A stretch of 59,634 nucleotides of DNA. Source: a virus. Taxonomy: Duplodnaviria; Caudoviricetes. Location: positions 1 to 59,634 of the IMG/VR virus record IMGVR_UViG_3300005326_000008. One strand, written 5' to 3'. Each line of letters opens with the position of its first letter. Position 1 is the first letter of the stretch. Below, in pieces: positions 1 to 57,210 of this stretch. Under the pieces are notes generated by a model, which was given only the letters and a program-made list of their open reading frames with translations, had not been told where the DNA came from and did no database searches. A program made the translations under genes and the position numbers.

Positions 1-123
1 AAAAGAGGGAGATGAAATATTATTAGAGGAAATTTATAAAGTACCTTACCCAATAGTTCTAGATATTGGAGCTGGCGATGGAAAGTGGGGTTCACTAATC
101 GACAAAGAGAGAATAAAATCTAT
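1..123. repeat. Terminal direct repeat, copy 1 (circular assembly overlap)
   Basis: 1-123 is identical to 59512-59634, and an ORF reads through the junction. Confidence 0.95.
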
Positions 124-541
124 ATGTGCGTTAGAGGTATGGGGACCGCATGCAGCCAAATTAATGGATTCTTATGCCTATGATTCTGTAATCCAAGATG
201 ATATGCTTAATACTGACAGAATAGCCTATAATTCCTTTAATGTGATTATATTTGGAGACGTGTTAGAACATGTAGAAAAAGATAAAGGAATAGGACTAAT
301 TAAGTTCCTGAAGGCCAATACCAAAGCAATTATACTTTTAACAATACCAATATCTTTATGTATCCAAGATGGTTGGGTATATGGTAATCCTTATGAAACA
401 CATAAAGCACAATGGACCTATGAAGAACTAATATCTCTTGGGTTTGAATGCTTACACAGAGGATTTAATCCAAATGGGCTGGTAGAGATTGGAACTTATA
501 AAATGAGGTGTAATAATGGTAAAGAGACAATTGACATTTAA
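2..541 (+). CDS. Class I SAM-dependent methyltransferase, 3' part
   Basis: Open frame from 2 to 541 with LDIGAGDG and FGDVLEH motifs. The ORF track start at 164 is an internal Met. Confidence 0.85.
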   Translation, partial: KEGDEILLEEIYKVPYPIVLDIGAGDGKWGSLIDKERIKSICALEVWGPHAAKLMDSYAYDSVIQDDMLNTDRIAYNSFNVIIFGDVLEHVEKDKGIGLIKFLKANTKAIILLTIPISLCIQDGWVYGNPYETHKAQWTYEELISLGFECLHRGFNPNGLVEIGTYKMRCNNGKETIDI

Positions 542-1845: not shown

Positions 1846-1900
1846 TTACAAATTAAGAAACCTTTATATATTACATAAGCGTATATATAATATAAATAAG

Positions 1901-1945
1901 ATGGGCTAGGTCTAGCTAGTTAAGGCCGCCGGACCGATACCCACA
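1901..1945 (+). ncRNA. Candidate small RNA or GC-rich hairpin at the convergence of the two transcription arms
   Basis: BRE-TATA (GAAACCTTTATATA, 1857-1870). Stems TGGG/CCCA and GGTCTAGC/GCCGGACC. Confidence 0.35.
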
Positions 1946-1959
1946 AATTAAATTCTATT

Positions 1960-2169
1960 TTATAATGGATACCATTCTGAATGAGCATCCCTTAGGTATT
2001 TATCCAATGCGGTTGCACAACCACCAATTAATACCCACAACGCTGTGTTAACAGGGCTGGTATTGATTAATACGGATATTAATGCTGGTATCTGTGGTAC
2101 AACAGCTCTCAAAAATCTTTTTCCATAATGGAAGAAGCTTTCTTTAAAAGTATATGTTTTCTTTGCCAT
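1960..2169 (-). CDS. Small membrane protein, holin-like
   Basis: 69 aa with two hydrophobic segments and a basic N-terminus; GGAGG RBS; last gene of the late arm. Confidence 0.55.
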   Translation of the reverse strand: MAKKTYTFKESFFHYGKRFLRAVVPQIPALISVLINTSPVNTALWVLIGGCATALDKYLRDAHSEWYPL

Positions 2170-2222
2170 TTTTGTTCCTCCTTTCAGTTAATACTAATTA
2201 TTAAAAAATAAAAAAAATAGGG

Positions 2223-3767
2223 TTAATAAACCCCAATTGTTGCCTCAACTTGTTCGTCAACTAACTTGATTAATACATCATCGTTGTCTGCATTTGATTC
2301 TGGTGAGACAATTACGCAACCTAATGAAGTTAATACATCCTCATCAAATGTTCCGATTTCTCTGCCACTATACAAAATGTCAGTTGATTCTGCATCATCT
2401 TCGTTACCCAAACTTTCGCTTTCAGCTAATGAATTAATAGTAATCCATTCACCTAGTTCGTCAGTTATGTAGACTTCTCCATTTGGACCGAACTCGACTA
2501 CGTAATCTGCTTCATTCAAATCAATAACTACTTCGCTATCAGTTGCAACAACAAAGTCACTACCATCTGCGTAATAGATATTTGAACCGTCTGAATACAA
2601 GACACTAAAGTCATCTCCGTCAATTTCCAAGACATCTTCACTGGCTTTTAACTCAGTTACTTTGACATCTACTTCATCAACTTCAATTGTATCAAATCCA
2701 ATTTCTAGTTCAACTACACTTGGTTCACTTACTTTATCAAGGCATACAGACAAGTATTCTTCTGGGAATACGATACAATCTCCAATGCTCAATGCAGCCA
2801 TATCACTGTCTAATCTATTGAACTTTTCATCCAATACAACAGAGATACTTACCAATTGACCATCTTCAACTTTAATATCCCATACCCAATTAGCTGATTC
2901 TCCATAGTCATCGCCAGACTCAACAGTTTCCTGTGAACCAATGCCTACGACCAAAACAGCTGCACTTTCTGCTTTAGTGTCTCTATAGAAAATATTGTCT
3001 ACATAGACTTTCACACCATTAACAGTTTCAGTGTCACCTTCTTCAACAACTTCGGCTTCTCCATCAACAGCAACAATGACTGAATCCATACCAACGTCTA
3101 CTAACTCAACGCCATCGATTACTTCGCCAACATGAACATATTGTGTTGGTTTTGTAAAGTAAGTCATTGAATTCTCATCTACATCTGTAATAGACAAGAC
3201 TTGGCCTAAGAAACTTATTTCTAATGGATTGTTTTCACTGATGTCGTCAACTAAAACTTCATCTTCAAAATTATAGTTGTAACTAACAGATTCTCTTACT
3301 TCGCTAACTAAATAAACATTTGAACCAAACTCTGATTCATAATCTTCACTTCCGCTGTAAGCAATCTTATTGTCTGAAGTTAATTCTACACTTTCAGATA
3401 CATCAATACTGTCTTCTCCAAATTCTATTTCTGTGTCAATTAATTTCTCAACTTCGTTCTCATCAAGGCTCAATTCGACGTTATCACCTAGATTGTATTC
3501 TTCTGAATACAAAGCACTTGGTGCAACTACGATTACCTCTTCTTCTTCAACTGGCAAAGTCGCAATATAATCATCTATCGCACCTTGGTTGTCAGTTGTA
3601 ATATCTACTGATTCTTGACCGCTCAAGTAAGCTGCGTCTTCCATTGCTTTAACTTCTTCTGCTGTGTACTCAGTTGTGTTTTCTGTAGTACATGCACTTA
3701 AGAATACAGCAATGCCTAACATAGCAACAATACCTAAAACGACCAATACTTTCTTGCTTAAACCCAT
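2223..3767 (-). CDS. S-layer-like protein with lipoprotein signal
   Basis: Lipobox FLSA-C. Very acidic, beta-rich body with segments I recognise from DPANN S-layer proteins (NPLEISFLGQVLSIT, ETVNGVKVYVDNIFY, SPESNADNDDVLIKLVDEQVEA). Confidence 0.75.
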   Translation of the reverse strand: MGLSKKVLVVLGIVAMLGIAVFLSACTTENTTEYTAEEVKAMEDAAYLSGQESVDITTDNQGAIDDYIATLPVEEEEVIVVAPSALYSEEYNLGDNVELSLDENEVEKLIDTEIEFGEDSIDVSESVELTSDNKIAYSGSEDYESEFGSNVYLVSEVRESVSYNYNFEDEVLVDDISENNPLEISFLGQVLSITDVDENSMTYFTKPTQYVHVGEVIDGVELVDVGMDSVIVAVDGEAEVVEEGDTETVNGVKVYVDNIFYRDTKAESAAVLVVGIGSQETVESGDDYGESANWVWDIKVEDGQLVSISVVLDEKFNRLDSDMAALSIGDCIVFPEEYLSVCLDKVSEPSVVELEIGFDTIEVDEVDVKVTELKASEDVLEIDGDDFSVLYSDGSNIYYADGSDFVVATDSEVVIDLNEADYVVEFGPNGEVYITDELGEWITINSLAESESLGNEDDAESTDILYSGREIGTFDEDVLTSLGCVIVSPESNADNDDVLIKLVDEQVEATIGVY

Positions 3768-3797
3768 GTTTTTCTACCTCCATGAAATTTTATAGCT

Positions 3798-3959
3798 CTA
3801 ATCTCTAATATCTTCTCCTTTAATAACCTTTTTATTCATATTATTTAAAGGATTAGGGATATATAACTCGTTCACTTTCTCTGTTACTACTTTCCGAAGA
3901 AGAAGCTCATCTTCGGTGCGGATAGTTACTGAAAAGTGTGGAGCACGAAGAGAGTTCAT
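3798..3959 (-). CDS. Small hypothetical protein (53 aa)
   Basis: ORF fills the gap between the peptidase and S-layer genes. Confidence 0.35.
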   Translation of the reverse strand: MNSLRAPHFSVTIRTEDELLLRKVVTEKVNELYIPNPLNNMNKKVIKGEDIRD

Positions 3960-3960
3960 A

Positions 3961-4578
3961 TCAGTAAGCGATTAACACTACAACGCCTTTTATTTCCTCT
4001 AAGGCAACCCATGTCGCGTCTGCGCCCTTACAATTGTCTCCTTGACATTGGTACTCTGGGAGTCCGATTTTATTAGTCCTAACTCTCACAACCCTATGGC
4101 AGATACTATTTATGGAACCTTTCTTTTGGTAGACTATAATATCTCCAACCTTGGGGAGTTTATCTTTAGGCCAATGTTCTTGTGGCAAAATAATAATATG
4201 CGAGTCTTTATCTAATGTTGGTAACATAGAGTTTGTATCAGCTATAAAATGTTTAATTGGCTGTTTTACGTAGACCACAACGCTTGAATTCGATATCTTA
4301 ATCTCATCCTTTAATAACCAATCCTGTGGGGAGAAATCGTCTTTCTTACTACGGAATATAGCCGAACCTCCAGCTCTAATACCTTCAAAAGTATCTTCGC
4401 TATTGACTTCCAATTGATTAGTCTTACTTATCTTAACTAACTCTTGAGAAATTGCATCTCGTTGTTTGAATGATTCGTCTAACTGGGCCTCCAATGTTTT
4501 AATCTGGTCTTGGAGTTTTTTAATCTCCAGACTAGATTCTAACTTAAACCCTTTTATTGCCTCTTTTATTCTTATCAT
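3961..4578 (-). CDS. S24/S26 family peptidase (archaeal signal peptidase I-like) with N-terminal coiled coil
   Basis: TNSMLPTL (Ser), GDIIVY, ICHRVV (His), QGDN motifs; no transmembrane anchor. Confidence 0.8.
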   Translation of the reverse strand: MIRIKEAIKGFKLESSLEIKKLQDQIKTLEAQLDESFKQRDAISQELVKISKTNQLEVNSEDTFEGIRAGGSAIFRSKKDDFSPQDWLLKDEIKISNSSVVVYVKQPIKHFIADTNSMLPTLDKDSHIIILPQEHWPKDKLPKVGDIIVYQKKGSINSICHRVVRVRTNKIGLPEYQCQGDNCKGADATWVALEEIKGVVVLIAY

Positions 4579-4585: not shown

Positions 4586-5479
4586 CTAAGTTGTAATTAA
4601 ACCTGTTTCAGTTTTATATCCTTCAATCCACCAAATTCTCATTTTCACAGCTGATACCGCAATTGTAGCAGTATGGTTCTGGTATGAACAACCAAATGTG
4701 TATGAGGATTGACCAGCCATTAATGGTCCTGCACATGCACCGACATCATAAGCTGGCCCATCGTTTAAACTAGTTTCGCATATCGCGCTGTTTGCATCAT
4801 CACCTTGAACTGGCCAGATTGTTGACCAAATGTAATCTCTACTAGCAGTAGTTTCTAATGTCGCTGAAAATACAATATCATACGCTTGGTTAGAAGCATC
4901 TACATCACTCTGACTGTTATTTATGTAAAAAGAGAAATCACCGTGACCAGCGCCAGTAATAGAATATGTAAAACTAATCTGCATAGCTGTAATTATATTA
5001 TCCGCAGTTCTTGGTGTAAATGTATAAGTCCTTCCAGAAGCTGGTGACGAATCAGTGTAATCAATATATTTAACACAAGACTGTGTCACATACGATGTAG
5101 GAAATATATGAAAGTTTGTAGTAGAAGTTGCTACTCCTATTGGTACGCTAGATATGGTAGTACTTGTCCCTCCAGCGGATGTAGAGGTGTAATAAATCTC
5201 CTTAGCTGTTAATCCCGTCGTTCTATAATTTCCTCCACATTGTAAGTATACTGTGGTTCCAGAGTTTGCAGTGTTAAGTGCTATTCCTGTAAATTTGTTA
5301 TCTGCGGAAGCATCTTTATCAGACTGGTAAGCTTCACCATCAGATTCTGAAACATAACAAGCCTGACCTGCTGTTAAGTTTTCTCCAGCTTCAGCGTTGA
5401 TTATATTTATAGCTGCATTTGCGTCTCCATCATAAAATATATCTCCATCTGTTTTTGGTTGTACGTATTCAACTGCCAT
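4586..5479 (-). CDS. Tail fibre / receptor-binding protein
   Basis: AGENLTAGQACYVS beta-clip-like N-terminus; Ser/Thr-rich; at the end of the tail module. Confidence 0.55.
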   Translation of the reverse strand: MAVEYVQPKTDGDIFYDGDANAAINIINAEAGENLTAGQACYVSESDGEAYQSDKDASADNKFTGIALNTANSGTTVYLQCGGNYRTTGLTAKEIYYTSTSAGGTSTTISSVPIGVATSTTNFHIFPTSYVTQSCVKYIDYTDSSPASGRTYTFTPRTADNIITAMQISFTYSITGAGHGDFSFYINNSQSDVDASNQAYDIVFSATLETTASRDYIWSTIWPVQGDDANSAICETSLNDGPAYDVGACAGPLMAGQSSYTFGCSYQNHTATIAVSAVKMRIWWIEGYKTETGLITT

Positions 5480-5653
5480 TTATTTCACCTCATTTGCTTT
5501 ATATTCTAGGTACTCAATTATATGAGACCCACCGATTATTAATTTGTTTTTTAGATACCATCTAACTATGTCTTCTGAATCAATACTAGGAAACAATTTT
5601 AGAATTGCTTGCGATTGATTACTAAATTGTATGTTTAGTTCTGCATTTTCCAT
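5480..5653 (-). CDS. Small hypothetical protein (57 aa)
   Basis: Abuts both neighbours; GAGGTG RBS. Confidence 0.55.
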   Translation of the reverse strand: MENAELNIQFSNQSQAILKLFPSIDSEDIVRWYLKNKLIIGGSHIIEYLEYKANEVK

Positions 5654-7162
5654 TTATACCACCTCAATATAATCATTCTGTTGGATTTTAAAGTTGCTAG
5701 TTTTATATGTGGGGCTAATTCTACTTGCACAGAATAGTGTAGCAGTCCCACGATTTGCTAAGTGCCAATAGTCCATGACTATACTTCCTGCGGCAATTAT
5801 AGTCCCAGTACTATCAGTATGAAGTCCTATATAAAGATAATCCAAAGTTGTTACATTTGGAGAACCTATACTTGCCGAAGTTGCCAAGTTATGTTCTATA
5901 ACATTCCAATAATTTGTAAGTTCAACTTGAGAAAAGGATTTCACATAATAATTTGAACTATCATTCCCAATTCTAATCTCTACAGCCGTTCCTGTAGAAG
6001 CTAATTGGGTTATGTCAACAAATCTTAATCCCATTCCTAAATCACAACCTGTACCATCATAGGTACTACCCAATGTTTGATAATAATATGCAATTGTACT
6101 AGCCGTTCCGCTCTTACCTATACTCAACCCACTATCCCCTTCTCTGAACTGCGAAGTATTTATTACTTGTACAGCTGCATCAGTACTCTCTGTGAATGTC
6201 TGAGTACTACAATTATCTAATAAAGTAATACTTCCTCCGATAATACCTGTACTTAACCCTGTCTGCTGTAAATATACTGAAAGCGTTGTTCCTAGATTGT
6301 TAGTAGGTTCAGAGGTATCTAATACACTAATTACTACAGTCCTAAAACCAGAATCTGTATAGGAAGAAACGGCGTTTCTATCTTGAGGCAATACCACAGC
6401 ATAGTCTCTATCTGCAGGTATGGTTCCATTTCCAAAACCCCATTCTGAATAAATTGGTCTTGATGATGTATCTCCACCTATCCACGAACGAGTTAAATTT
6501 AATCCATCATTGGTAATTAGAGAGTTACCAACACTTTCATCACTAATCGTAAAAGTTTCACTAATCCTAGTAAATAACAAATCACTACATACTGTTCCTG
6601 TGAACACCCTCCTAGAAAAAATAGTCCCCCCTGTTGATGCGCTAAACCAACCTACTTCACCAATTGTGGTACCCCCCACGGTACTTATTCCCGGAACTAA
6701 TTCTCCAATCAGAGTTACATTATAACTAGTTCCTGTGTTAGAAGATAGAGTTACTCTAGAACCAACTTCACTTTCTAAAGCTGTGTCTGAAATATTAAAT
6801 GCTGTTGTTCCAGAACCTATTCCTACGTAAGTCGGAGAAGTTACTCCATTAGAAATCCAATCTCTCACCCAATATCTTCCGGAACTAGGTAATACTTGTT
6901 GGGTGGTATCTTCATAATAGGTTGAATAAGAACCTGTCAAATCTCCAAATTTGTCTGTACCAATAATACCATTAGTAGAAGAACCAAAAATAAAAGTAAG
7001 TCCTAACGATTTATTTTCTACCAATAGATTACTACTAACAACTTTTAATTTATAAGAGGTAACTACAAATTGTGTTGGCTGAGAACCCGGTTTAATCAAG
7101 TTATGTTGCATATTCTGTTGATTGCTCAAACTCCTACCTAATATCTCACCAAGTTCACTCAT
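5654..7162 (-). CDS. Tail tip / baseplate protein with putative carbohydrate-binding domain
   Basis: YVGIGSGTTAF..DTALESEV..R and TIGEVGWF tail-protein motifs; position in the tail module. Confidence 0.65.
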   Translation of the reverse strand: MSELGEILGRSLSNQQNMQHNLIKPGSQPTQFVVTSYKLKVVSSNLLVENKSLGLTFIFGSSTNGIIGTDKFGDLTGSYSTYYEDTTQQVLPSSGRYWVRDWISNGVTSPTYVGIGSGTTAFNISDTALESEVGSRVTLSSNTGTSYNVTLIGELVPGISTVGGTTIGEVGWFSASTGGTIFSRRVFTGTVCSDLLFTRISETFTISDESVGNSLITNDGLNLTRSWIGGDTSSRPIYSEWGFGNGTIPADRDYAVVLPQDRNAVSSYTDSGFRTVVISVLDTSEPTNNLGTTLSVYLQQTGLSTGIIGGSITLLDNCSTQTFTESTDAAVQVINTSQFREGDSGLSIGKSGTASTIAYYYQTLGSTYDGTGCDLGMGLRFVDITQLASTGTAVEIRIGNDSSNYYVKSFSQVELTNYWNVIEHNLATSASIGSPNVTTLDYLYIGLHTDSTGTIIAAGSIVMDYWHLANRGTATLFCASRISPTYKTSNFKIQQNDYIEVV

Positions 7163-7163
7163 T

Positions 7164-9509
7164 TTATTCTATAGTCTCCTCATCTTCTTTTAATGTCAAT
7201 ATTGTCTTATCAATAGTATATTTGATTTCTATGATTCTGAGTTTCTTCTCAAACAAACCAAAGTCCGGGAAAGTAAGAGTAATTATATCTCCAAGGGCAT
7301 AGACATTAGTAAATTGTAATTCTACCTCTGCTTCTATTCGTGGATTAGAATATAGTTTGATTATCTTGATAGCTTCATCATATCCTGTCCATTGAGCTTC
7401 CAAGTCTATTGCTGCTGAGTATTCGTCCTCATCAGCACCACAAGTTTTCTTGGAGCCTGTTTTAGTACCATCATCATTCCTAGCCTCGAACTGGAAAGTC
7501 CAAGTAGCAGAACCACTACCCCAAGTACCACCCGAAAGGGAAGGATAGTTAGAAGTCCTAACCCCCTCAGAGTCTACAGGGAACGCAGTAGTATTCTTTT
7601 GAAATTCGTTCTCAATCAAAGTTGGAGCCACATTCGAAGTCGAAGTTGTATACAACCATCTACCTCCAATAGAAGAGGCACTTGTAAAATCAGCAGCAAG
7701 ATATTCTAATCCTATCTCGTTACAGTTTGCTCCAACGTTATAAATAACAAAGTTAACTACATCATCTACTTTCTTTGCCGCAGAAGTCAAAAGGGGTATG
7801 ACTGAACCGTCAGAAGTTCCTTGAGTAATATTTGTAGCAGAGTATACTGTTGCACCATTTGCATGCGTAGCGGCAGTAGTACCATTCGCCCCACGCGTAC
7901 AACCAGTAAAAGTTGTGGCTGTCTTACCAGTGAACGAAATCTCTTCTGAGTCTATCTTGATTATCCCTCGTTTATTATTCCAACTTGCTGTAGAAGCCAC
8001 AGTTACAGTCGTGTCTGTAGAGTTTAACCCAATAGTAGTTGTAGTTGAGTAAGATATAACAATAGAATCTATAATCATATCCCCTGAAGACATAGTTGAT
8101 GCAGCAGATTCTATATCAAAATAAATTCTGAGATAATCTAACGCAGCAATGTTCGGACTACCCACCGCGGTCAAATCACTTATCACAAATGAAAATAAAT
8201 TCCATCCAACACTCAATAAATCTCTACCCATATCACTATTGTCACATCTATAATAATTACTAGAATCAGAACCCAGCCTTATAAAAGATGAACTGAATCC
8301 TGCGGAAGTTTCTATCTTGTTTAAAGTTGCAGTATCTTTTATGTATACATAAATATGAAAGGTCCCGCCTGTACCATTAATGGGTGAAGCAAGAGTTTTA
8401 TTATAAGTAAAAGAAGACACTCCCCCAGATAGAAAACCAATATTCAATGCTGTTGCATCAGTAGTTCCGCCATATTCTTGGTAAGTAGTAGTATTTGTAG
8501 TTTCTGCTATTGCAGCTGCGTCACCAGTCCAATCAGCAGTACTACAAGCATCATACGTCGTGTATGTTGTTGTTGTTTCGGTAGACGAACCTGACAAAGT
8601 GGTGCTTGGTGCTGATGCTATCTTAGGTCTACAATAGAACTCGTAATTATCAGTATCAGGGTTATATTCTACCCAAAAAATGTATTGGCCATCTTCAGTA
8701 TATTCATCGGAACAAACTTCTTCAATCTGTTCTAAAGTGTTCTTGTACCCAGCAAAATATTCTTTGTTTGGAAACGCCGAACCATCACGTTTAGTAATTG
8801 GATTACCTAAAGTATCCCATTCATTCTCTTCGGCTCCATACAAGCTTCTGTTAATATTATAATCATTTAATTGTGCTAACAAAGTTTGGATAATAGAATA
8901 GAACGGCTGAGCAACAGTGGTCTTATCAAATGTAAGCCCGCACATAATTATTTCAATCAACCCTTTCCCTCTAACATTTAAGAAAGCACCGGAGTCACTA
9001 GAATCTGAACTTGGTTCTGTAACTACACCAGAAATTAATAAATCTGCATTGGTTGCACTAGTCGCATCTTTCCAAACATAAACATCACAAATATCATCGG
9101 CAGTTATAATCGCGTGCCTAACTTCGATATTTCTATTTCCAGTGGCTGGAGCACTCACAAAAGTTAATGTGCTACCGCTTACAGAATAATCCGTAGTATA
9201 TGTTTGCTCTACATCATCAACAAATACTTGAAACAATGTTGAATCACCAGTAAAATCACTAACCACATCCGAGGGTAAAGAAAATGCTAAAGTGAATGCT
9301 AATGTACTATTATCTCCGCTAAAAGTCTGAGCATTATAGATATTATGCGGATTCTGAATTGTAAACTCGAACTGGTCTACGCTCTTACCTATCCCTTTAG
9401 TAACTTGGATAGAGTTGCCTCTTAGATATTTAAGCTCGATACCAGTTGTTGACCAAGTACTATCTTTTAGCTTTTTGTACAATAATACTTTACATTTATT
9501 GTAGTGCAT
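7164..9509 (-). CDS. Tail hub / central tail protein
   Basis: Follows TMP and Dit. Hub-like C-terminus (YALGDIITLTFPDFGL..KLRIIEIKY) and internal inserted domains (FTGCTRGANGTTAATH). Confidence 0.65.
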   Translation of the reverse strand: MHYNKCKVLLYKKLKDSTWSTTGIELKYLRGNSIQVTKGIGKSVDQFEFTIQNPHNIYNAQTFSGDNSTLAFTLAFSLPSDVVSDFTGDSTLFQVFVDDVEQTYTTDYSVSGSTLTFVSAPATGNRNIEVRHAIITADDICDVYVWKDATSATNADLLISGVVTEPSSDSSDSGAFLNVRGKGLIEIIMCGLTFDKTTVAQPFYSIIQTLLAQLNDYNINRSLYGAEENEWDTLGNPITKRDGSAFPNKEYFAGYKNTLEQIEEVCSDEYTEDGQYIFWVEYNPDTDNYEFYCRPKIASAPSTTLSGSSTETTTTYTTYDACSTADWTGDAAAIAETTNTTTYQEYGGTTDATALNIGFLSGGVSSFTYNKTLASPINGTGGTFHIYVYIKDTATLNKIETSAGFSSSFIRLGSDSSNYYRCDNSDMGRDLLSVGWNLFSFVISDLTAVGSPNIAALDYLRIYFDIESAASTMSSGDMIIDSIVISYSTTTTIGLNSTDTTVTVASTASWNNKRGIIKIDSEEISFTGKTATTFTGCTRGANGTTAATHANGATVYSATNITQGTSDGSVIPLLTSAAKKVDDVVNFVIYNVGANCNEIGLEYLAADFTSASSIGGRWLYTTSTSNVAPTLIENEFQKNTTAFPVDSEGVRTSNYPSLSGGTWGSGSATWTFQFEARNDDGTKTGSKKTCGADEDEYSAAIDLEAQWTGYDEAIKIIKLYSNPRIEAEVELQFTNVYALGDIITLTFPDFGLFEKKLRIIEIKYTIDKTILTLKEDEETIE

Positions 9510-9971: not shown

Positions 9972-11645
9972 TTATCTCCCCAAGTTAGCATTACTAGTGT
10001 ACCTTTTAATCTCATGCAATAATTTCCTGTACACGGTCTCGTCTACGCTACCATTGATTGTAATATTAATTCCGCCATTACTAGAATTGCCGCCTTGATA
10101 TGGAGTCTGAACTTTCTCTCCTCTGTGCATTAAATACATACCAGTCTCTGGAATATCTCCACCGAATTGTTTTCCGTTAGAACTCGTTCCTGAAGAAGAT
10201 TTAGACACTGACCCAGATAGTCCGCTATAACTTCCCGCGCCACTAACTTTACTCATTGCTTCATATAGCCTATTATATGCTGCAGTCATTCCATCTACAG
10301 CAGTAGTAGTATCATAAGCTTTCGTTATATTCGCATCCATAGTTGGAATAAGTGTGTCAGTCATAGTTGTAGAAGTCTGAACAATTCCGGCATTTAATCC
10401 ATTTTCTCCAGAAATACTGTTAATCACACTCTGAACTGAAAAATCAAATCCATCTAAATATTCCGTTTGAACACCAGTTACTAACGCATTTTCCGCAGCA
10501 ATTGTAGAACCATCGGCCATACAAGCATTTAATTCTTCTTGGGAAATAGTTGCATTTTGTGATGTTGTACTCATTAATCCCATTGCAGAATCTACTGATG
10601 AAAATACTAATGCTTGACTTTCAAGGTTAGATTGGTTTGCAGAGTCAATTATACTTTGAACTCCGCCAGCAGCTTTTCCAAAACTTCCACCACCGGGAAT
10701 CTTAGAAGCCATATTTAGTAAAGATACAATAGCTCCACCAATCAAATTTACAGCTAATAAGTTAATATTGTTGAAGGTGGACCAAGCCAATTTAACGAAA
10801 CCTCCTAATATAAGTGGTAAATCTAAAGTAAATATCCCTGTTAGAAAATCCTTAAATGCTAACCATTGTTGTTCTAATTGTGGGATGATTGCATTTGTTG
10901 AATCTTTAAGCCCTAAAATATTATTATCATACATCCATTTTAATAAGGCTATTGCAACGATTACAACTGCTATCCAAAATAGTACTGTTCCTAACCCTGC
11001 AACAAATGCGCCTAAACCTGCAGCACCACCAGCCCCAGCAGCAGCAATTCCAAGATAATCAAATGCCCAAACTAACCCTGATAATCCTAATACAAAAGAA
11101 CCCAATAGGAATAACAGAGCACCAATCAAAGCTCCGAATCCAATTAAAGCAGTAAATAATTTTGGATGTTTCTGAATCCAAAGAGACACGGCATTTATTA
11201 TTGAAATAATTATAGGCAATAATGGAAGTAAAGCAGTATTAATAGCCCTACCAATTTCGAATCTTAAATAGGTCATATATGCAGTCAACTGGTTTAATGC
11301 TGTTCCAGCATAACCGCTAGACTCAATAATTTTATTAAACGCGTCTACAGAAGTGGTAGCAAGTCTTGTAAATATTCTTTGTATTTGCATTCCGAAGAAC
11401 ATAGCAGATAACGCACCCATCTCGAATTCTTGAGCAAACTTCCCAAACTTCTTTGTAGTAGAAGTTATTCTTTCATTAACAGTCTTTAGAGAACCATCAA
11501 CTTGTGCAACATTCTTTGTCATAGTTGCTGTAGTCTTTTGCATACCCTTCCCAACATCTTCTATAACTTTTTTAGTACGCAATAATCCTGCCGAAGATTT
11601 ATCTCGATAAACTGTTTCTATTTCAATTCGGTTTCTTGATGCCAT
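9972..11645 (-). CDS. Tail tape measure protein
   Basis: Helical Ala/Gly-rich with hydrophobic stretches; C-terminal QFGG.IPETG.YLMHRGEKV motif. Confidence 0.85.
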   Translation of the reverse strand: MASRNRIEIETVYRDKSSAGLLRTKKVIEDVGKGMQKTTATMTKNVAQVDGSLKTVNERITSTTKKFGKFAQEFEMGALSAMFFGMQIQRIFTRLATTSVDAFNKIIESSGYAGTALNQLTAYMTYLRFEIGRAINTALLPLLPIIISIINAVSLWIQKHPKLFTALIGFGALIGALLFLLGSFVLGLSGLVWAFDYLGIAAAGAGGAAGLGAFVAGLGTVLFWIAVVIVAIALLKWMYDNNILGLKDSTNAIIPQLEQQWLAFKDFLTGIFTLDLPLILGGFVKLAWSTFNNINLLAVNLIGGAIVSLLNMASKIPGGGSFGKAAGGVQSIIDSANQSNLESQALVFSSVDSAMGLMSTTSQNATISQEELNACMADGSTIAAENALVTGVQTEYLDGFDFSVQSVINSISGENGLNAGIVQTSTTMTDTLIPTMDANITKAYDTTTAVDGMTAAYNRLYEAMSKVSGAGSYSGLSGSVSKSSSGTSSNGKQFGGDIPETGMYLMHRGEKVQTPYQGGNSSNGGINITINGSVDETVYRKLLHEIKRYTSNANLGR

Positions 11646-18653: not shown

Positions 18654-19598
18654 CTAAGCGTATGGGTTCTTGACCAATATCCAAGCTACTGAGTTCGCAT
18701 CTGATGCGTTAGAGCTTGTAATGGTAATCGTTCCTGTGCTACATACTCCTGCTAATACTCCCGCGTTAGAAGTACCAGTGTTGTTAGTTAGGAATACTAT
18801 ATCACCAGTAGCGGCACTTGCGTTAGCTACTGTTGCTGCACCAGAGGACAAAGCAACTGTTCCTGCAACCAAACTGTTATCAGTAATGTATAACGTATTA
18901 TTAATAATAGTTGGTCCACTTAAAGATGCTGTACCTGAACTTCCAGTAGAGATTCCACCATTACCAATAATTAAACCAGTAGCAGTTAATCCGCTTACAG
19001 CAGCAACAGGCCCATTCAATGTCATTGTACCGTTTGCGCCCAAGGTTACATTATTGTTAAATGTCGCAGCAGCGCTATGTGTCATTGCACCTGAAATAGT
19101 AGATGGGCAAGAGATAGTTGCTGTGTTTGTACCAGAAGCTGTCAAAGCACCAGTAATTGTAGTAACGCCTGTAATTGAAGCAGTTCCATCAATGGTTAAT
19201 GGTCCTGATATTGTAACAGTTCCATTCGCTCCTATAGATACATTATTACTTGCAGTCAATGCACCAGTAATAGTTGTAACTCCGGTAATTGAAGTTGCAC
19301 CAGATATTGTATTTGCACCACTTAATGTGTTTGGTCCAGCCAAAGTGACAGTTCCTGTAGTTCCTACAGTAATACCTGCGCCTGTTTGGCAAGCTATTGT
19401 TGAATATGCTCTTAATGTGTCTGTGGTTGCAGCACATAAATCTACATTAGCATTTGCGTCTAATTTACCTGTTACGGTAAGTGTATCAGCACTAGCGTCA
19501 CCAAATGTGAAGTTTCCATCAACATCTAGGTTTCTTGAGATGCTAACGTCTCTTGCAGTAACATCTCCGCTATGCCATCCGAATCTTGTGTTTGTCAT
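18654..19598 (-). CDS. Head fibre / decoration protein
   Basis: Directly after MCP; Gly/Thr/Ala beta-helix repeats (SITGVTTITGALTAS twice). Confidence 0.65.
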   Translation of the reverse strand: MTNTRFGWHSGDVTARDVSISRNLDVDGNFTFGDASADTLTVTGKLDANANVDLCAATTDTLRAYSTIACQTGAGITVGTTGTVTLAGPNTLSGANTISGATSITGVTTITGALTASNNVSIGANGTVTISGPLTIDGTASITGVTTITGALTASGTNTATISCPSTISGAMTHSAAATFNNNVTLGANGTMTLNGPVAAVSGLTATGLIIGNGGISTGSSGTASLSGPTIINNTLYITDNSLVAGTVALSSGAATVANASAATGDIVFLTNNTGTSNAGVLAGVCSTGTITITSSNASDANSVAWILVKNPYA

Positions 19599-19647: not shown

Positions 19648-19680
19648 ATTAAAATAAAAAAATAAGGGAAATTCCCTTAA
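19648..19680 (-). terminator. Hairpin plus T-run after the major capsid gene
   Basis: TAAGGGAATTTCCCTTA followed by TTTTTTTATTTT on the minus strand. Confidence 0.6.
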
Positions 19681-20711
19681 GCGTCTGTTACCCAGATTTT
19701 TACGATTGCATCTGTGTAGAATACACTTGTAGCGTAGTTCATTGCTAAGATGATTCTAGTTTGTAAGTTACTTGGGTAATCGAATATCTTCAATGTAGGA
19801 GGTAATCCCCAAGCTAATGCACTAGCTTTCTTAGCTTTTAACAATAAACAAGTGTGTCCGATAACTGATGCTCCACCACCATCAGTGAATCTTGGTGTGT
19901 TGCTTGTTACAACAATTTTTGTACCTAAATATCTACCAATCTCACCATTCAAAACAATATCATTGTTTCCGTATTCAGAAGCGTTGACAAACTGAGAATC
20001 TTTCAAGAAAGCGTTCTCGTTTTCAGGCGCGATGAATAATACGAATGGTTCTTCAGGTGTGTTTAACCATGGGTTCTTGTAATCAGAACTGTCTCCTTCA
20101 GTAGAACCGCTCCAGTATTTTACTGTGGTACTCATCAATCTTGTTTTTGCGTTAGCAACCAAGTCTGTAGTCAATATGTCACCACTAGCTAATGTTGCCT
20201 TTGAGTAAGCATCTCCACCGAAGATTTCTTGAGCTCCTCTAGCACTTGATGTTGCGGTTGTTGCAGCAGCTAATGCAGCAGAAATTGCTTTATCAACTAC
20301 GTCTGCAGCCCAGTAAGTCAACTCTTCTTTAGCAGCTCTTACTAAATCTACAGCGTTTGTTTGCATAGCATAGTCTGACAATCTAATTGAATAAGCGTGC
20401 TGTGATGGGCTTAATTCAAGTCCGTCCAAGTTATCCATTGTGGTTGCGGATACTTCTGTGTTCTCTGCTGTTTGGTCAGCAAATGTACCTGCGTTTGCTA
20501 AGTAAACTTTTCTGTAAGGAACTACTACATCTTTGTTTCCTTTTGGAACTTCTGTAGTATAAGATACTTGTACAAAGTATTGCATTTTCTTTGCACCATC
20601 TATAATGTCCCTTAACCATACGACTGGTTCTAATGCGTATACGGTACCGATGGAACTACCTCTTGTAGATGAGGAACCGGTATCAGCTAATTCTATAATT
20701 GTTTCTTTCAT
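19677..20711 (-). CDS. Major capsid protein (HK97 fold)
   Basis: 344 aa after the protease; PVVW, LNGEIGRYLGTKIVVT motifs. Confidence 0.9.
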   Translation of the reverse strand: MKETIIELADTGSSSTRGSSIGTVYALEPVVWLRDIIDGAKKMQYFVQVSYTTEVPKGNKDVVVPYRKVYLANAGTFADQTAENTEVSATTMDNLDGLELSPSQHAYSIRLSDYAMQTNAVDLVRAAKEELTYWAADVVDKAISAALAAATTATSSARGAQEIFGGDAYSKATLASGDILTTDLVANAKTRLMSTTVKYWSGSTEGDSSDYKNPWLNTPEEPFVLFIAPENENAFLKDSQFVNASEYGNNDIVLNGEIGRYLGTKIVVTSNTPRFTDGGGASVIGHTCLLLKAKKASALAWGLPPTLKIFDYPSNLQTRIILAMNYATSVFYTDAIVKIWVTDA

Positions 20712-22018: not shown

Positions 22019-22574
22019 TGAACACACCTCTTACCTCAAAATATAAATCCATTGTAGAACCATCAAGGTATTTGGAATTGAAACTTTTCACAACAGCACC
22101 ACTGGAGTAAGGAAGCATAGAACAAGTATTAATCGCGTTTACTATATCTTCTTGGTTACTTACAACAATCGCATACAAATTCTTTACATCTACTGGTAAG
22201 TACTTAAGTCTGTTGATAATAGATTTCCGTTCTGCCCAAGATAACTTGCGAACATCTTTATTAAAATATAATACATCCAAAATGTATATCTTTGGAGTAT
22301 GGTGAGTTAGTATCAATTGTGAGAGCATTATTTTTAGAATAGTCGAAGGAGTAGTTTCAATGGGATAATAAGGTTCCATTTTCAATACTGCATCAAAAAT
22401 AAAATCTTTGTCTTTAAATTTTAAAAATTGGTTAGCAGTGTCTGGCATAGACATGGTTATATCTATTCCAGTAATAGTCTTAATCTTAACATCGTTACCT
22501 TTCTTGTGGATTACTACCCTAACTCCTTCAACTAATGGCTCGACACCATAGTTAACATTGAATGACTTCATCAA
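21996..22574 (-). CDS. ATP-dependent DNA ligase adenylation-domain homologue, predicted inactive
   Basis: VEPLVEGVRVVIHKKG (motif I, no Lys), FIFDAV, ILDVLYFN, ERKSII, SGAVVK...SKY; no OB domain. Confidence 0.75.
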   Translation of the reverse strand: MMKSFNVNYGVEPLVEGVRVVIHKKGNDVKIKTITGIDITMSMPDTANQFLKFKDKDFIFDAVLKMEPYYPIETTPSTILKIMLSQLILTHHTPKIYILDVLYFNKDVRKLSWAERKSIINRLKYLPVDVKNLYAIVVSNQEDIVNAINTCSMLPYSSGAVVKSFNSKYLDGSTMDLYFEVRGVFNESTIII

Positions 22575-23643
22575 TTAGCTTCCTCCATTCGGTCAACCAA
22601 GACTTTTTATCGTAATTAGCCTGAGCAAATGACCTTGGACTGAACTTCTCAAGGTTTTCTAGCACATATTTTATCCCATTCTCGAACCCTTGGACAGACT
22701 CTTCTACAACTAATCCAGCTTCAAATTCAGGTTTTTTATCCCAAAATAAGCCTGATTTTGTGGAAATAACCGGGACATTACAAGCCATAGACTCGATTGC
22801 TGTCAGGTTAAAACTTTCTATATGCGACGTGCAAATAGTTACATCTGCCATGTTATACATTAACTGCATGCAATCGTACTTGATATTATCAAACACGCTA
22901 ACATTCGGTGATACAATCTTGTTTTTCTTGACATTATGCTTGAACACTAATACAAAATGCCACTCTGGGTGAGCTAATATCAAATCTCTTACCAGTTCGT
23001 AACCTTTAACCGGATGGAATGCACCGGACCATAAGATAACCGGTTTGTCTAAAGGAACTTTCAATTCTTCACGGATTTTATTCTTTTCCATAGGTATGAA
23101 TAATTCTGTGTCACAAGCATGAGGCAAATATCTTATCTTGTCCTCGCCTTCAGGGTATATCTCTAAAACATAGTGTCTCATATATTCTGTTGGCACTACG
23201 ATTAAATGACTTTTCCTAAATTGTTCTACTTGTAATAATGGATATGTAAATCCGAACTCAGTATAATTATTCTGGTCATATACACCTAGCTCAGTAAATC
23301 TATCAGCTAATGGTAGATATGGGTTTTGTGCTATTGTTATTAACTTGATTGCCTTCGGGAAATAAAAAGGAAAACAACAATCATTAGCAATAATCAGTTT
23401 AGGTAATGAACCGACTAACTCTGCCATCTTCAAATAATGTGCCATGATACCAGTCTTAGAGATTACTTGTAAATTTGTATAAGCCCCAAATGGTTGTTGG
23501 TTCAATTTCATTGCACAATAGTTTGGAGTGAAAGTTTCAATCTGGTCTGAAGGAAACAATCCAGATAGTAGTAAATTAATCCGCTCACAACCGCCAATTA
23601 TCTCGCCAGCATCATAAAAGTTTGCTAGTAAATAGTCTTTCAT
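22552..23643 (-). CDS. Glycosyltransferase family 4 (GT-B)
   Basis: GGCE, HPVKG, ESFNLTAIESMACNVPVI (EX7E). Confidence 0.9.
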   Translation of the reverse strand: MKDYLLANFYDAGEIIGGCERINLLLSGLFPSDQIETFTPNYCAMKLNQQPFGAYTNLQVISKTGIMAHYLKMAELVGSLPKLIIANDCCFPFYFPKAIKLITIAQNPYLPLADRFTELGVYDQNNYTEFGFTYPLLQVEQFRKSHLIVVPTEYMRHYVLEIYPEGEDKIRYLPHACDTELFIPMEKNKIREELKVPLDKPVILWSGAFHPVKGYELVRDLILAHPEWHFVLVFKHNVKKNKIVSPNVSVFDNIKYDCMQLMYNMADVTICTSHIESFNLTAIESMACNVPVISTKSGLFWDKKPEFEAGLVVEESVQGFENGIKYVLENLEKFSPRSFAQANYDKKSWLTEWRKLIDEVIQC

Positions 23644-23651
23644 TTATTCAC

Positions 23652-24950
23652 CTATAATCCTAATGACTGCGTATGGTAGTCCATTACTTGTTTGCTTGCG
23701 TCTTGCTCTCCTGAAACTTTATCAACTAACTTTACCCATTGGTTCATAACATCTTCTTTCAGATAATTCTTTGTATGGTTGATTGCATTCTCAGAATATT
23801 GTTTGAACTCTGGTTTGTTTCTCTGGTCAAACATGATTAACATATCTTCAGTTAGTTCGCCCATGTTAATTAGAAACAAATCTGATAATGCTGGCATAGT
23901 CTCAATATACGCTGGAGTTACTGTCATCCCCGCCTTAGGAGTCTCTACCAACTCTTGGCCAGTAGTTGCTCTGAAAGTTAATTGAGGTATTCCACAAGCC
24001 ATGGATTCTAAAATAGGTAATCCAAAAGATTCGCCACTAGAAGTCTGGACATTTACATCAGACATCCAATACATCTTTTTCATATACTCTGGCCCAAATG
24101 CTTGGTTAGAGTTATATTTCATCCCTCGACCATCCATCTCGTTAGTTGGCTCAGGTTTACCTAATTTGTCTAGCTTAAAGTTTACAAAGATTATATGGTT
24201 ATCCAACCTATACATTTGTCTCATTAAGATTAGGTTCATACCTTCAGGTTCTATTGGGTCGGTAACTAGTACTATCCTAGCCTTTTCTTCAAACTCCTTA
24301 TTCAAATCACAAGCTCGTCTGAAGGATTTAAACATTGCTGGATAATTCTTTTGGTTACCTTTATTTCTCATAACGGAAATAAACACAAAATTATCTTTAT
24401 TCAACCCAAATCTTTCTCTAAACTCGTGCCTATTATCCGATTCTGTTGGAGGATAATATTCTTCAGGTGAGATAAAGTGAGGGATATATTCTACTGTGGG
24501 ATAACCAGTCTTAATCAATAAATCAGTCCCCCATTGGCTTGGGACTACCAAAACCTTAGCTCTAGAAATCTTATTTACCATAAACGGAGATATCGGACTA
24601 GCATTTACTGTTACATGCGCTATCCAAGTTAAGTCTTTGAACTTTTCAACTACCCTAGGAATATGAGCTACACAATCCATCCACAAATCCATTCCAGTTA
24701 GTAAGATGTCTATGTTACAAATTCTCAAATAATCTTCTAGTACATCACTAGTCCAAGGGTCGTACCTTAGTCCCAGTCTCTGGATACCATCATTATCAAT
24801 ATGGCTAATACCTATATCTTGCATGCCAAAGTAATAGACATTGTATCCGGATTTCTTCAGAGCTCGTGCTACCTCTGAGAATATGACTGCGTACCCAAAC
24901 CTAGTATTTATAGAGTTACTAAGTATCAAAATGTTCTTTTTTCGTTCCAT
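23652..24950 (-). CDS. Glycosyltransferase family 4 (GT-B)
   Basis: RNKGNQKN and GESFGLPILESMACGIPQ (EX7E). Confidence 0.9.
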   Translation of the reverse strand: MERKKNILILSNSINTRFGYAVIFSEVARALKKSGYNVYYFGMQDIGISHIDNDGIQRLGLRYDPWTSDVLEDYLRICNIDILLTGMDLWMDCVAHIPRVVEKFKDLTWIAHVTVNASPISPFMVNKISRAKVLVVPSQWGTDLLIKTGYPTVEYIPHFISPEEYYPPTESDNRHEFRERFGLNKDNFVFISVMRNKGNQKNYPAMFKSFRRACDLNKEFEEKARIVLVTDPIEPEGMNLILMRQMYRLDNHIIFVNFKLDKLGKPEPTNEMDGRGMKYNSNQAFGPEYMKKMYWMSDVNVQTSSGESFGLPILESMACGIPQLTFRATTGQELVETPKAGMTVTPAYIETMPALSDLFLINMGELTEDMLIMFDQRNKPEFKQYSENAINHTKNYLKEDVMNQWVKLVDKVSGEQDASKQVMDYHTQSLGL

Positions 24951-24968: not shown

Positions 24969-25517
24969 TCAAAAAATGGTCTCAACTAATTCCCGAACAT
25001 TCTTAAACCTCTTTGCAGGGGTCATAAGTTTTACAGTTTTCATTGGTTCTATTTTTGATTTTGAGTTGTCTTGAAGTGTTTGGATATTGTCGTAATAAAA
25101 ACCATCAGAGTAAGCTCTTTCATCTATCTTAATCTTTCTGGGTTCTGAATAAATATCGACTAAATCGAAATCGTAGATAAAAAAATATTCTTTGTTACCA
25201 TAAAATAATTCTAACTCTAATGGGTCTAAGGATAATTCTTCGATATGGTTTAATAGTACTTCCGTGTACGATACCTTTTGCGCATGACCTAACTTTAAAA
25301 TACCATAACAGAAATCATTGTCAATCAGGTAATACAGCTGGCCGGATTTAGTAAAATATTCTCGCGTGAAAAGCATCAACCTCTTTTTCCCACAGGCTAT
25401 CTTACTAGCATGAACATCTTTGAGAGCAGACTTAGTATTAATCAACCTCTCTGTAATCTGGCTAGACCCAGACTTACTGTTTTCCTGTTTCAGGTACTCT
25501 GGTCCTATCGATTTCAT
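24969..25517 (-). CDS. ASCH/PUA-like domain protein with a ligase-like C-terminal peptide
   Basis: LKDVHASKIACGKKRLML and CYGILKLG are ASCH-like. Confidence 0.5.
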   Translation of the reverse strand: MKSIGPEYLKQENSKSGSSQITERLINTKSALKDVHASKIACGKKRLMLFTREYFTKSGQLYYLIDNDFCYGILKLGHAQKVSYTEVLLNHIEELSLDPLELELFYGNKEYFFIYDFDLVDIYSEPRKIKIDERAYSDGFYYDNIQTLQDNSKSKIEPMKTVKLMTPAKRFKNVRELVETIF

Positions 25518-26803
25518 ATTTTCTCGTACTTGTAAATTTTCTCTAATACTCTTGGCATGTCTAAGACTACACCAGCCTTCTGATAATCTTTCAGTCTTCT
25601 GGCGAAATCGTCTTCGACTGTTAATCCAATATCATCCCAGACTATTGTTGGCACCTCAACCTTGAGTTTTCCTTGTGCGTCAACGAATGCGGGATTGGAC
25701 TTTAACAATGGTTTGAATAATTTCCTGCGTATTTCTTCAGTCACAGTCTTGATTATATCTTTTAATGTCAGAACATACAAATAAGATTGAACTTCTAAAG
25801 TAGACCTGTCAGTATTTGTACCTAACCCTGTTGCAAATGGCATAGGGATACCCATACCAGTAACCTGTTGTTCGGTAAAATAGTTCAAATCTTCTCTAAT
25901 ATCTTCGATTCCCTTAGGTTCTAATAACTGAATCTCGTTAAAATACTCGGTTACAACGCTGCTTTTATAGTCCATAGCTTCTAAAATCTTCAATAATTTG
26001 TTAGCAGCAGCAGGAGTTGGAGGGTGTTTTTCGTCACCAACTTTACCAACTTTGACTGGAAAACCGACTCTATAGACTGAATTGGCCATAGCTTCTTCCA
26101 TATTTAGCTTTCGTAATGAAGATTTATATGTAGGTTCAACTAATCCAATAGGATAAAACTTGTCTCCAGCAGAATATAATTTGATTAGGCCTATCTTGTA
26201 AGTAGGAAAGAACAATTGATTTGGTGATAGACTTACTCCCTTAGGTGTTGGATATTTTTTTAAGTAAGTAGGAATGTATGCAGAGTATTCTAAACATTGG
26301 ACGAATCCAACAGGATTACCATAAACATCTAATACAACCTTGCCTTCAGAATCTTTAGCATAATCCATAGTATCTGTATCTATCTTCTGCCAGTCCATGA
26401 TTATATTACCACGAGTGTTCCAAATAATCTCGTTCCAATCCCAACCATAAAGTATAGTGTTATGGAAAGTCATCCCGAGGAACTCTTCCCAACCGATGTC
26501 TGAACCAGACTTGCCGAGATTAGAAATAAATCTTTTAACATACTCAACAGCAGATGCATCAGTTCCTTCAATTCTATTATCTCTGTTCATGATAGTCTGA
26601 CGCATTTTGTTCACACCATTAAATGCAATCCTATCATGCAAATAACATGCGGTCAATTCTTTTTGTGAAGCTCTTGGCATCTTTGGTGTTTGATTTTGTG
26701 AAGTAATAGTCACACCTTTCTCTTCTTGCGAAACAGAAATGTCTTCTTGTTTAGTTAATTCTTGAATCTGGTTGAAACCTAATAAATCTGAAAAGGTCTT
26801 CAT
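25514..26803 (-). CDS. Portal protein
   Basis: 429 aa after TerL; ILYGWDWNEIIW, YPIGLVE, GMGIP motifs. Confidence 0.85.
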   Translation of the reverse strand: MKTFSDLLGFNQIQELTKQEDISVSQEEKGVTITSQNQTPKMPRASQKELTACYLHDRIAFNGVNKMRQTIMNRDNRIEGTDASAVEYVKRFISNLGKSGSDIGWEEFLGMTFHNTILYGWDWNEIIWNTRGNIIMDWQKIDTDTMDYAKDSEGKVVLDVYGNPVGFVQCLEYSAYIPTYLKKYPTPKGVSLSPNQLFFPTYKIGLIKLYSAGDKFYPIGLVEPTYKSSLRKLNMEEAMANSVYRVGFPVKVGKVGDEKHPPTPAAANKLLKILEAMDYKSSVVTEYFNEIQLLEPKGIEDIREDLNYFTEQQVTGMGIPMPFATGLGTNTDRSTLEVQSYLYVLTLKDIIKTVTEEIRRKLFKPLLKSNPAFVDAQGKLKVEVPTIVWDDIGLTVEDDFARRLKDYQKAGVVLDMPRVLEKIYKYEKI

Positions 26804-56871: not shown

Positions 56872-56882
56872 GAGATGAAAAC

Positions 56883-57119: not shown

Positions 57120-57210
57120 ATCTTGAAGAAGTAGTAACTTATGGTCTGATAGTTTTTTTAATTTTATTATTAGGGTTTAGTATTGGATTGACATTGGGGT
57201 GTTTGTATTT

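Follow-up and report, generated by a model that had tools for sequence, protein, structure and literature searches.

The window analyzed here is the whole 59,634-base virus record IMGVR_UViG_3300005326_000008, a genome with a 123-base-pair (bp) direct terminal repeat and a CheckV completeness of 100. The last four genes of its late region (positions 1960 to 4578, minus strand; Table 1) encode a 205-amino-acid (aa) peptidase without a membrane anchor, a soluble 53-aa protein, an acidic 514-aa protein with a lipobox and a 69-aa membrane protein with two hydrophobic segments. An earlier note on this DNA had proposed a candidate archaeal lysis or surface cassette made up of an anchorless signal peptidase, an S-layer protein and a holin-like protein, leaving the 53-aa gene unmentioned. 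We infer, with slightly less than even confidence, that the four-gene locus is a lysis cassette suited to a peptidoglycan-free host, which is the best-supported reading of the available evidence.

By its predicted fold and catalytic boxes, the 205-aa protein is a member of peptidase family S26, subfamily B, and a predicted enzyme. The NCBIfam model TIGR02228 (archaeal signal peptidase I) matches it with an expect (E) value of 1.5e-9 and 37.9 bits, below the cut-off of 51.85, and the SipW and bacterial signal peptidase I (SPase I) models rank next; the Pfam model Peptidase_S26 (PF10502) also remains below its cut-off of 22.9, with E 0.12 and 12.7 bits. The curated TIGR02228 cut-off is passed by one cellular relative, P0013 (60.5 bits). 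In an alignment of the best 120 relatives, residues S117, G145, D146, H161 and G180 are invariant, and M118, P120, R162, D181, N182 and D187 are at least 90% conserved. These positions constitute the serine box (SM-P), box C (GD), the His-Arg box and box E (GDN...D) of the Ser/His branch represented by SEC11 and SipW, and the His and GDN boxes line up with human SEC11A in a direct comparison. The family also possesses a signature ahead of the serine box, consisting of a conserved Ser-Pro-x-Asp-Trp segment and three short strands. An AlphaFold2 model built with the relatives' alignment (predicted local distance difference test score, pLDDT, 89.1) consists of a single charged helix (residues 2-53), a disordered linker (about 57-72) and a beta catalytic domain (about 80-205, pLDDT >94) that houses S117, H161 and D181/D187. 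Its best matches among solved structures are SEC11C (7p2q_A; E 1e-3, template-modelling score (TM) 0.51 by target), SipA (4n31) and SEC11A (7p2p_A), and bacterial SPase I, LexA and the lambda repressor (CI) follow lower in the ranking. No membrane segment is present in the peptidase, whose highest 19-residue hydropathy is 1.27, at the C-terminal strand. The invariant S117 and H161, the long helix and the missing membrane segment agree with the earlier description of an S26 peptidase that keeps its Ser/His motifs and carries a coiled coil in place of its anchor, and structure prediction, which had been proposed as a check, recovered the S26 beta-barrel fold with SEC11C and SEC11A nearest. The protein is therefore predicted to be an active Ser/His peptidase.

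The shared fold brings LexA, the lambda repressor and SipA into the list of structural matches, and the family is not represented in PHROGs and has no member of known function, all of which is compatible with a role away from the envelope, in which the protein would be a LexA/CI-like protease with a regulatory or self-cleaving function in the cytoplasm, a catalytically silent, SipA-like assembly helper or a passenger gene with no part in exit or entry. Such a role is very unlikely, as the Ser/His and GDN boxes are of the S26B type rather than the LexA Ser/Lys type, no DNA-binding domain accompanies them, the catalytic residues are invariant here whereas SipA-type helpers have lost theirs, and conservation across several viral clades argues for a function.

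Relatives of the peptidase were collected by an exhaustive HMMER search, which returned 276 proteins at E <= 1e-3. Among the best 150 of these 276, which were scored for an anchor, 126 have a clear hydrophobic segment, six are borderline and 18 have none. The three that bear a name among ten looked up are all Woesearchaeota proteins, and the closest relatives, P0002 (50% identity), P0003 (40%) and P0004 (37%), all have the same anchorless helical N-terminus as the window protein. A word-based homologue search with the peptidase returned only the protein itself, a tblastn search of 50,697 phage records with the peptidase and the 514-aa protein gave no match, and no relatives turned up in IMG/VR when it was scanned with the peptidase, 781-aa, 514-aa, terminase and capsid proteins one at a time. 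In a quick IQ-TREE phylogeny of 128 rows, with few columns and many unresolved forks (34 of 162 candidate rows lacked the serine-box pattern and were left out), the anchorless state requires eight changes, compared with a mean of 22.2 after shuffling, and none of 500 shuffles was as low. One clade is entirely anchorless, with 97% support in the Shimodaira-Hasegawa-like approximate likelihood-ratio test (SH-aLRT). A second group of nine comprises the window, P0002-P0004, L002, L006, L012, L038 and the long-branched L001, within which the window's own group (window, P0002, P0004 and P0003/L002) has 92% support. The starred branches of the tree force at least two changes of anchor state, and some anchorless rows scattered over the tree are so short that they could stem from truncated gene calls. 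Judged from these sequences, anchorless S26 forms cluster strongly, into a small number of clades found on virus-like contigs. In L010 (9521-11973) and L024 (3613-6253), anchored cellular members of the family share a conserved neighborhood: an 82-85-aa multi-segment membrane protein is encoded upstream, and the gene immediately downstream specifies a 341-347-aa protein with a twin-arginine-type signal, which is a possible dedicated substrate.

The genomic context of anchorless S26 genes was surveyed in a metagenome scan that yielded 57 loci, 13 of which have a "DTNSM"-type serine box; the others are archaeal signal peptidases of the usual anchored kind. Of the 13, eight lack an anchor (L002, L004, L005, L006, L007, L011, L012 and L038), and L009, which belongs to the same sequence group and is cut at its 5' end, is counted as a ninth on an assumed anchor status. 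The next gene on the same strand encodes a small membrane protein in seven of these nine loci, against a generous background of 38 small, hydrophobic products among 200 open reading frames (ORFs) from five longer sources (binomial P ~2e-4); the nine loci form about three clades and are therefore not independent, so that the number of independent observations is nearer three. In L002, the peptidase gene is followed by that of a 64-aa two-segment protein and then by that of a signal-anchored acidic protein; the corresponding proteins of the window, of 69 and 514 aa, have no BLAST similarity to these and are analogous, not demonstrably homologous. L004 has a 61-aa two-segment protein next to S26, with a weak match to the holin family phrog_297 (E 0.0067), followed by another membrane protein. 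The partners in L005 and L038, of 78 and 86 aa, respectively, combine a coiled coil with a C-terminal membrane segment, and the L038 protein matches the XhlA-like "hemolysin" family phrog_937 over its full length (E 6.6e-4). L006 carries in a row S26, an XhlA-like gene homologous to that of L038 (E 1e-11) and a two-segment gene homologous to that of L002 (E 3e-7). The partner is an 86-aa multi-segment membrane protein in L007 and a 92-aa membrane protein in L009. As regards the synteny of S26 and holin genes that the earlier note had suggested looking for, the relatives show an adjoining small membrane protein in seven of nine loci, and in the window the 69-aa gene lies two genes away. In IMG/VR, scans with alignments A2 and A1 identified a single contig, L001 (identical to L060). 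Between 9333 and 11539 it encodes first a small S26-like peptidase, next a DNA methyltransferase, then a Phage_holin_10 holin and finally overlapping spanin-like genes, with no recognizable endolysin between them.

The 69-aa protein, encoded by the last of the four genes, is a candidate holin, an assignment that on sequence features appears somewhat more probable than the contrary. It has an isoelectric point (pI) of 9.5, hydrophobic segments at residues 19-37 and 40-56 and charged ends. By language-model features it lies closest to three viral "Holin family protein" clusters (score 0.92, with 195-199 of 256 features shared), all 30 of its hits in one language-model set are viral "Holin family protein" entries, and a cluster in which 41% of members carry Phage_r1t_holin scores 0.88; scores of at least 0.9 in these comparisons arise by chance 4-10 times in 100. 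The label "holin-like" is consequently favored by segment architecture and language-model neighbors, but gains no support from sequence profiles.

The 514-aa protein has a pI of 4.05 and contains 24% Asp and Glu; its N-terminus is a hydrophobic signal terminating in L-S-A-C of lipobox type. Cys26 of this lipobox is retained in all three close sequences, namely the protein itself, P0153 (50% identity) and P0154 (40%). Two distant homologues (~25% identity) are cell-surface-type proteins, one of them with a C-terminal membrane segment and the other, P0156, with a hit to S_layer_C (PF05124) of 19.1 bits, below the cut-off of 23.9. The ESM Atlas model of the protein aligns over residues 81-514 (TM 0.66/0.50) with a cluster that has S_layer_C in 93% of its members, mostly Aenigmatarchaeota, and the model of the protein also aligns (TM 0.59/0.68) with a mostly viral cluster of 161 members; feature-based neighbors are Nanobdellota clusters with scores <0.8, which have the value of leads. 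The protein's own structure model is mediocre (pLDDT 68), and its sole high-probability match to a solved structure is the Methanosarcina S-layer domain DUF1608 (probability 1.00), with a TM of only 0.22/0.35. Pfam and NCBIfam gave no hit at E <= 1 and no S-layer model, the viral structure library contained nothing credible, the 514-aa alignment found no relatives in IMG/VR, and alignment A3 recovered neither new relatives in a profile search nor meaningful matches among PDB sequences. The earlier designation as an S-layer protein draws partial support from the structural match to an S_layer_C cluster and the sub-threshold hit in P0156 but none from any family model, so that it overstates the case; S-layer-like surface lipoprotein appears a fair label for the modelled protein. 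The closest relatives of the peptidase and of the 514-aa protein, P0002 and P0153, each come from one contig recorded with a length of 43,422 bp, and most simply these are one and the same contig. The 53-aa protein belongs to no known family in Pfam, PHROG and NCBIfam searches, and no counterpart of its gene lies downstream of S26 in the relative L002. A complex prediction for the peptidase and the 53-aa protein scored 0.00, with controls not run, and bears neither way.

A different protease appears to occupy the position of S26 in L059, a 7.2-kilobase (kb) virus-like contig that encodes P0154, the 532-aa homologue of the 514-aa protein. There, a 77-aa two-segment membrane protein precedes the 532-aa homologue, and an open frame of at least 562 aa (2-1690) lies upstream, in the S26 position. 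The frame starts with a coiled coil, continues into an intein (Intein_splicing, E 1.7e-6; LAGLIDADG_3, E 4.3e-6, above cut-off) and, past the intein, shows a weak similarity to the latter half of Transglut_core (E 0.0062; 17.2 bits, where the cut-off is 23, and 15.5 bits in another search). The intein sits at a Gly-Asp-Cys sequence, the place of the catalytic cysteine of Transglut_core. Because the match covers only the post-intein half of the domain, the assignment of a transglutaminase-like protease is tentative, and the C-terminal part of the protein found nothing meaningful among PDB sequences. No S26 gene is present on L059, and a search of the genome to which this contig is assigned found nothing related to the anchorless peptidase. 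Were the assignment correct, another class would have taken over the protease slot, with the small membrane protein and the S-layer-like lipoprotein retained. Lysin genes characteristically swap enzyme domains, and transglutaminase-like cysteine peptidases are the class of the methanogen-virus lysins PeiP and PeiW.

The 514-aa family recurs next to a protease gene (in the window and L059, and probably also on the contig of 43,422 bp), which would also suit a surface-remodelling module, in which the peptidase would process exported viral or host proteins such as the 514-aa lipoprotein and so alter the surface of the infected cell, for superinfection exclusion or for the contact of the DPANN cell with its partner. 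Such a module would resemble dedicated S26B peptidases, for example SipW with TasA; dedicated pairings of the SipW/TasA and Tafi types are established. TafD is mentioned in a preprint. The twin-arginine-signal proteins that adjoin cellular S26 relatives in L010 and L024 suggest dedicated substrates, and the genome contains at least five glycosyltransferase-like and three methyltransferase genes, from which it follows that surface chemistry matters to this virus. This proposal nevertheless has only a small chance of being correct. An enzyme without signal peptide or anchor would be on the wrong side of the membrane until a breach occurs, which is topologically awkward, as it is for the maturation of virion or S-layer proteins that the earlier note had offered as an option, and the 514-aa protein has a lipobox rather than a typical type-I site. 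Moreover, since the neighboring protease in L059 is of another class and the secreted protein in L002 is non-homologous, no specific enzyme-substrate pair is conserved.

The minus-strand genes from ~35.3 kb down to 1960 constitute a classical tailed-virus late block (Table 1). Since this block meets convergent plus-strand genes that stop at 1845, the earlier note was right to put the cassette last in the late operon: its members are the final four genes of the block, behind the series of terminase, portal, capsid, tape measure and baseplate/fibre genes. A hairpin past the 69-aa gene, within the GC-rich stretch, was no better than in shuffled sequences (z -1.34), the window contains no tRNA and no Rfam family, that stretch included, and a sigma-70 promoter scan found no more sites than in shuffles. 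A reading of the peptidase gene as a prohead protease was dropped, with the head genes 15 kb away. Elsewhere in the late block, the one further small membrane protein of appreciable size is the 100-aa protein encoded between the terminase and portal genes, whose membrane segment is strong (hydropathy 2.34). The 314-aa protein by the capsid gene carries a C-terminal K1-lyase_C domain (PF24146, E 6e-7, above cut-off), which is known from tailspike-type enzymes and is unusual beside a capsid gene; a 331-aa ORF runs antisense to it. Sugar-handling genes are abundant in the genome, which suggests modification of virion or host-surface glycans.

Table 1. Layout of the cassette and of other features of the window, listed from high to low position
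Feature	Position	Strand	Remark
Metallophosphoesterase, two glycosyltransferase-like genes, two S-adenosylmethionine (SAM) methyltransferases	53637-57819
Large terminase	27146-28567	minus	phrog_38, E 2e-49
100-aa membrane protein	26800-27102	minus
Mu-type portal	25514-26803	minus
Two GT4 glycosyltransferases	22552-24950	minus	between portal and capsid genes
Major capsid protein	19677-20711	minus
314-aa protein with K1-lyase_C	18654-19598	minus
Tape measure	9972-11645	minus
Baseplate- and fibre-like genes (781, 502, 57 and 297 aa)	4586-9509	minus	directly upstream of the cassette, which they place at the end of the tail module
205-aa anchorless S26B-type (Ser/His) peptidase, predicted	3961-4578	minus
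53-aa soluble protein	3798-3959	minus	start 1 nucleotide (nt) past the peptidase stop
514-aa acidic, beta-rich lipobox protein	2223-3767	minus
Spacer between the 514-aa and 69-aa genes	2175-2222	minus	oligo-T run right after the 514-aa stop; GGAGG ribosome-binding motif ahead of the 69-aa start
69-aa two-segment membrane protein	1960-2169	minus	final gene of the late block
GC-rich stretch of ~40 nt	1890-1950		in the AT-rich spacer separating the convergent gene blocks
Open frame spanning the genome ends	2-541		methyltransferase-like, by eye

The peptidase gene begins 7 nt past the baseplate- and fibre-like genes, and the anchorless genes of L005, L006 and L038 likewise lie directly after tail or fibre-like genes. 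Together with the prediction of residues 2-53 as one long helix, this arrangement raises the possibility of a tail-borne entry enzyme, in which the helix would oligomerize as a coiled coil and tether the peptidase to baseplate or fibres, so that S-layer or other surface proteins are cut locally and the tail reaches the membrane. Such an enzyme would correspond, for a wall made of protein, to virion-associated lysins and depolymerases. According to a 2024 review, no S-layer-degrading enzyme of archaeal viruses was known, so that one is "missing" for entry as much as for exit. The proposal has a modest chance of being correct and is on the whole unlikely: most anchorless relatives (132-149 aa; L004-L007, L011, L012 and L038) consist of little beyond the catalytic domain and lack an attachment part, the regular partner is a small membrane protein with no place in a tail, and the L007 gene adjoins a head protease.

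A six-frame search of the complete genome at E <= 1 revealed no Amidase_2, Amidase_3, Phage_lysozyme, GH25, CHAP, M23, NLPC_P60 or SLT domain and no match to Transglut_core; the controls for the hydrolase search matched known genomes, and a divergent lysin could escape these families. These negatives, the Woesearchaeota names of relatives and the DPANN-rich taxa of the clusters fit, but do not establish, an archaeal host with an S-layer as its only wall, and by sequence the genome probably belongs to a virus of DPANN archaea. The terminase matches are distant (at most ~27% identity) and include assorted phages and one Altiarchaeum virus, so no taxonomy can be drawn from them.

On these grounds, the locus may be pictured as follows. 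The S26B-fold peptidase would descend from membrane-anchored enzymes of DPANN archaea (Woesearchaeota-like) by loss of the anchor and would accumulate in the cytoplasm late in infection. A small membrane protein, most likely the 69-aa two-segment protein, would then open the membrane, whereupon the peptidase could gain the outer face, cleave a small number of envelope proteins, or just one, for example the S-layer or its anchors, and allow the cell to open. The 514-aa S-layer-like lipoprotein, exported earlier as part of the same surface-directed module, might act as a substrate, a lattice-weakening subunit or an exclusion factor. We infer each of these elements, namely the enzyme activity, the cytoplasmic location, the release by a holin, the substrate and the host. 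A fold that acts on the outer face of the membrane, produced without signal or anchor, is placed like a canonical endolysin and is useless until the membrane has been opened; this endolysin-like topology, the small-membrane-protein partners, the apparent exchange of enzymes in L059 and the absence of matches to other lysins are the reasons why a lysis cassette is the best-supported reading. The lysis part of the original proposal accordingly stands in part, favored by the membrane-protein linkage, the L059 swap and the eight unmatched hydrolase families, but qualified by the displaced 69-aa gene and by the fit to a tail enzyme; the particular mechanism put forward there, in which the protease is released by the holin and cuts the stalks of the S-layer, is purely hypothetical.

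Several observations weigh against a lysis cassette, in addition to the relatedness of the nine loci, the assumed status of L009 and the chance rate of the language-model scores. Pfam, PHROG and NCBIfam yield nothing for the 69-aa protein at E <= 1, its gene lies 1.8 kb downstream of the peptidase gene and past an oligo-T run, and the product that directly follows the peptidase in the window is a soluble 53-aa protein rather than a membrane protein. In two of the nine loci, L011 and L012, no membrane protein is encoded downstream, and the S26 gene of L007 comes after a head-maturation protease (phrog_94, E 7e-28) instead of tail genes. A tail-borne enzyme would account just as well for the coiled coil and for the location behind fibre-like genes, and a 52-residue N-terminal helix is unusual in endolysins and usual in fibre and tail proteins. 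Lysis genes commonly follow tail genes, so that position alone cannot distinguish a last tail gene from a first lysis gene. The S26 enzymes known so far have narrow specificity. L001 is a high-GC bacterial phage, in which a 153-aa S26-like gene follows a fibre gene and lies ~1 kb from Phage_holin_10 (E 2.6e-14) and spanin-like genes; as its host has peptidoglycan, S26 cannot simply replace an endolysin there. L059 is binned in a "Bacillota" genome, and the host assignment, which rests on relatives' names and cluster taxa, is affected in that this binning and L001 place similar genes in bacterial settings.

The exit of head-tailed archaeal viruses from S-layer cells without murein is an open question, for which this locus provides a testable candidate. 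In passages of a 2024 review, no S-layer-degrading enzyme of an archaeal virus is known and the egress players of tailed archaeal viruses are termed "completely uncharacterized", and a 2022 preprint on HRTV-DL1 states that specific S-layer proteases "have not been found yet". For archaea, the main text of a 2025 survey of viral lytic proteins covers Pei and pyramid proteins together with some structure-predicted candidates, without the terms "signal peptidase" or "S26", although its supplementary tables might list candidates. Two papers on DPANN viruses contain neither "signal peptidase" nor "holin", and a literature search on archaeal and DPANN virus lysis, S-layer proteases, and phage S26 with holin returned no description of such a system. 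What is new here is a candidate cassette of holin-lysin type with a signal-peptidase-fold protease and an S-layer-like lipoprotein, an interpretation that is partly supported. If correct, it would provide the first S-layer-degrading enzyme to be identified in a virus and fill the place of the missing "endolysin" in archaeal tailed viruses, and it would illustrate a route by which a host secretion enzyme becomes a viral weapon by mere loss of its anchor. In a broader and somewhat doubtful generalization, tailed viruses of S-layer-only archaea, here DPANN, might lyse their hosts through a holin and a soluble, host-derived protease of the signal peptidase family that clips the S-layer or its anchors, with a modular enzyme slot filled by S26 or a transglutaminase-like cysteine protease and with the viral S-layer-like lipoprotein as part of the system.

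Among known systems, the locus may be compared with the holin-endolysin cassettes of tailed phages, such as the PBSX-type arrangement XhlA-XhlB-XlyA. It shares with them a signal-less enzyme at the end of the late genes by small membrane proteins, an exchanged enzyme domain, and XhlA-like and two-segment partners in related loci; unlike them, it has an enzyme that is a signal-peptidase-fold protease with a presumed protein target, a holin-like gene two genes off, and an S-layer-like lipoprotein in the cluster. PeiP and PeiW are likewise lysins of archaeal tailed viruses that cleave peptide bonds, as is presumed here, and the L059 protease has its weak match to the transglutaminase core; however, the Pei enzymes cut pseudomurein cross-links, which S-layer-only hosts lack, and they have another fold and belong to the cysteine class, and the window has no match to Transglut_core. 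The S26B signal peptidases (SEC11, SipW and TIGR02228) have the same fold, Ser/His boxes and GDN box, yet differ from the window enzyme, which has no anchor, scores below the family cut-off, and possesses the additional "SP-DW" segment with three strands and an N-terminal helix in the anchor's place. Virion-associated lysins and depolymerases of phage tails resemble the window enzyme in the location directly behind fibre genes and in the coiled-coil N-terminus, but the relatives have no attachment domain and are paired with membrane proteins. Finally, the Streptococcus pilus chaperone SipA/LepA (4n31), the second-best structural match, represents an S26 fold outside general secretion; SipA lacks the catalytic residues, in contrast to the window family, in which they are invariant.

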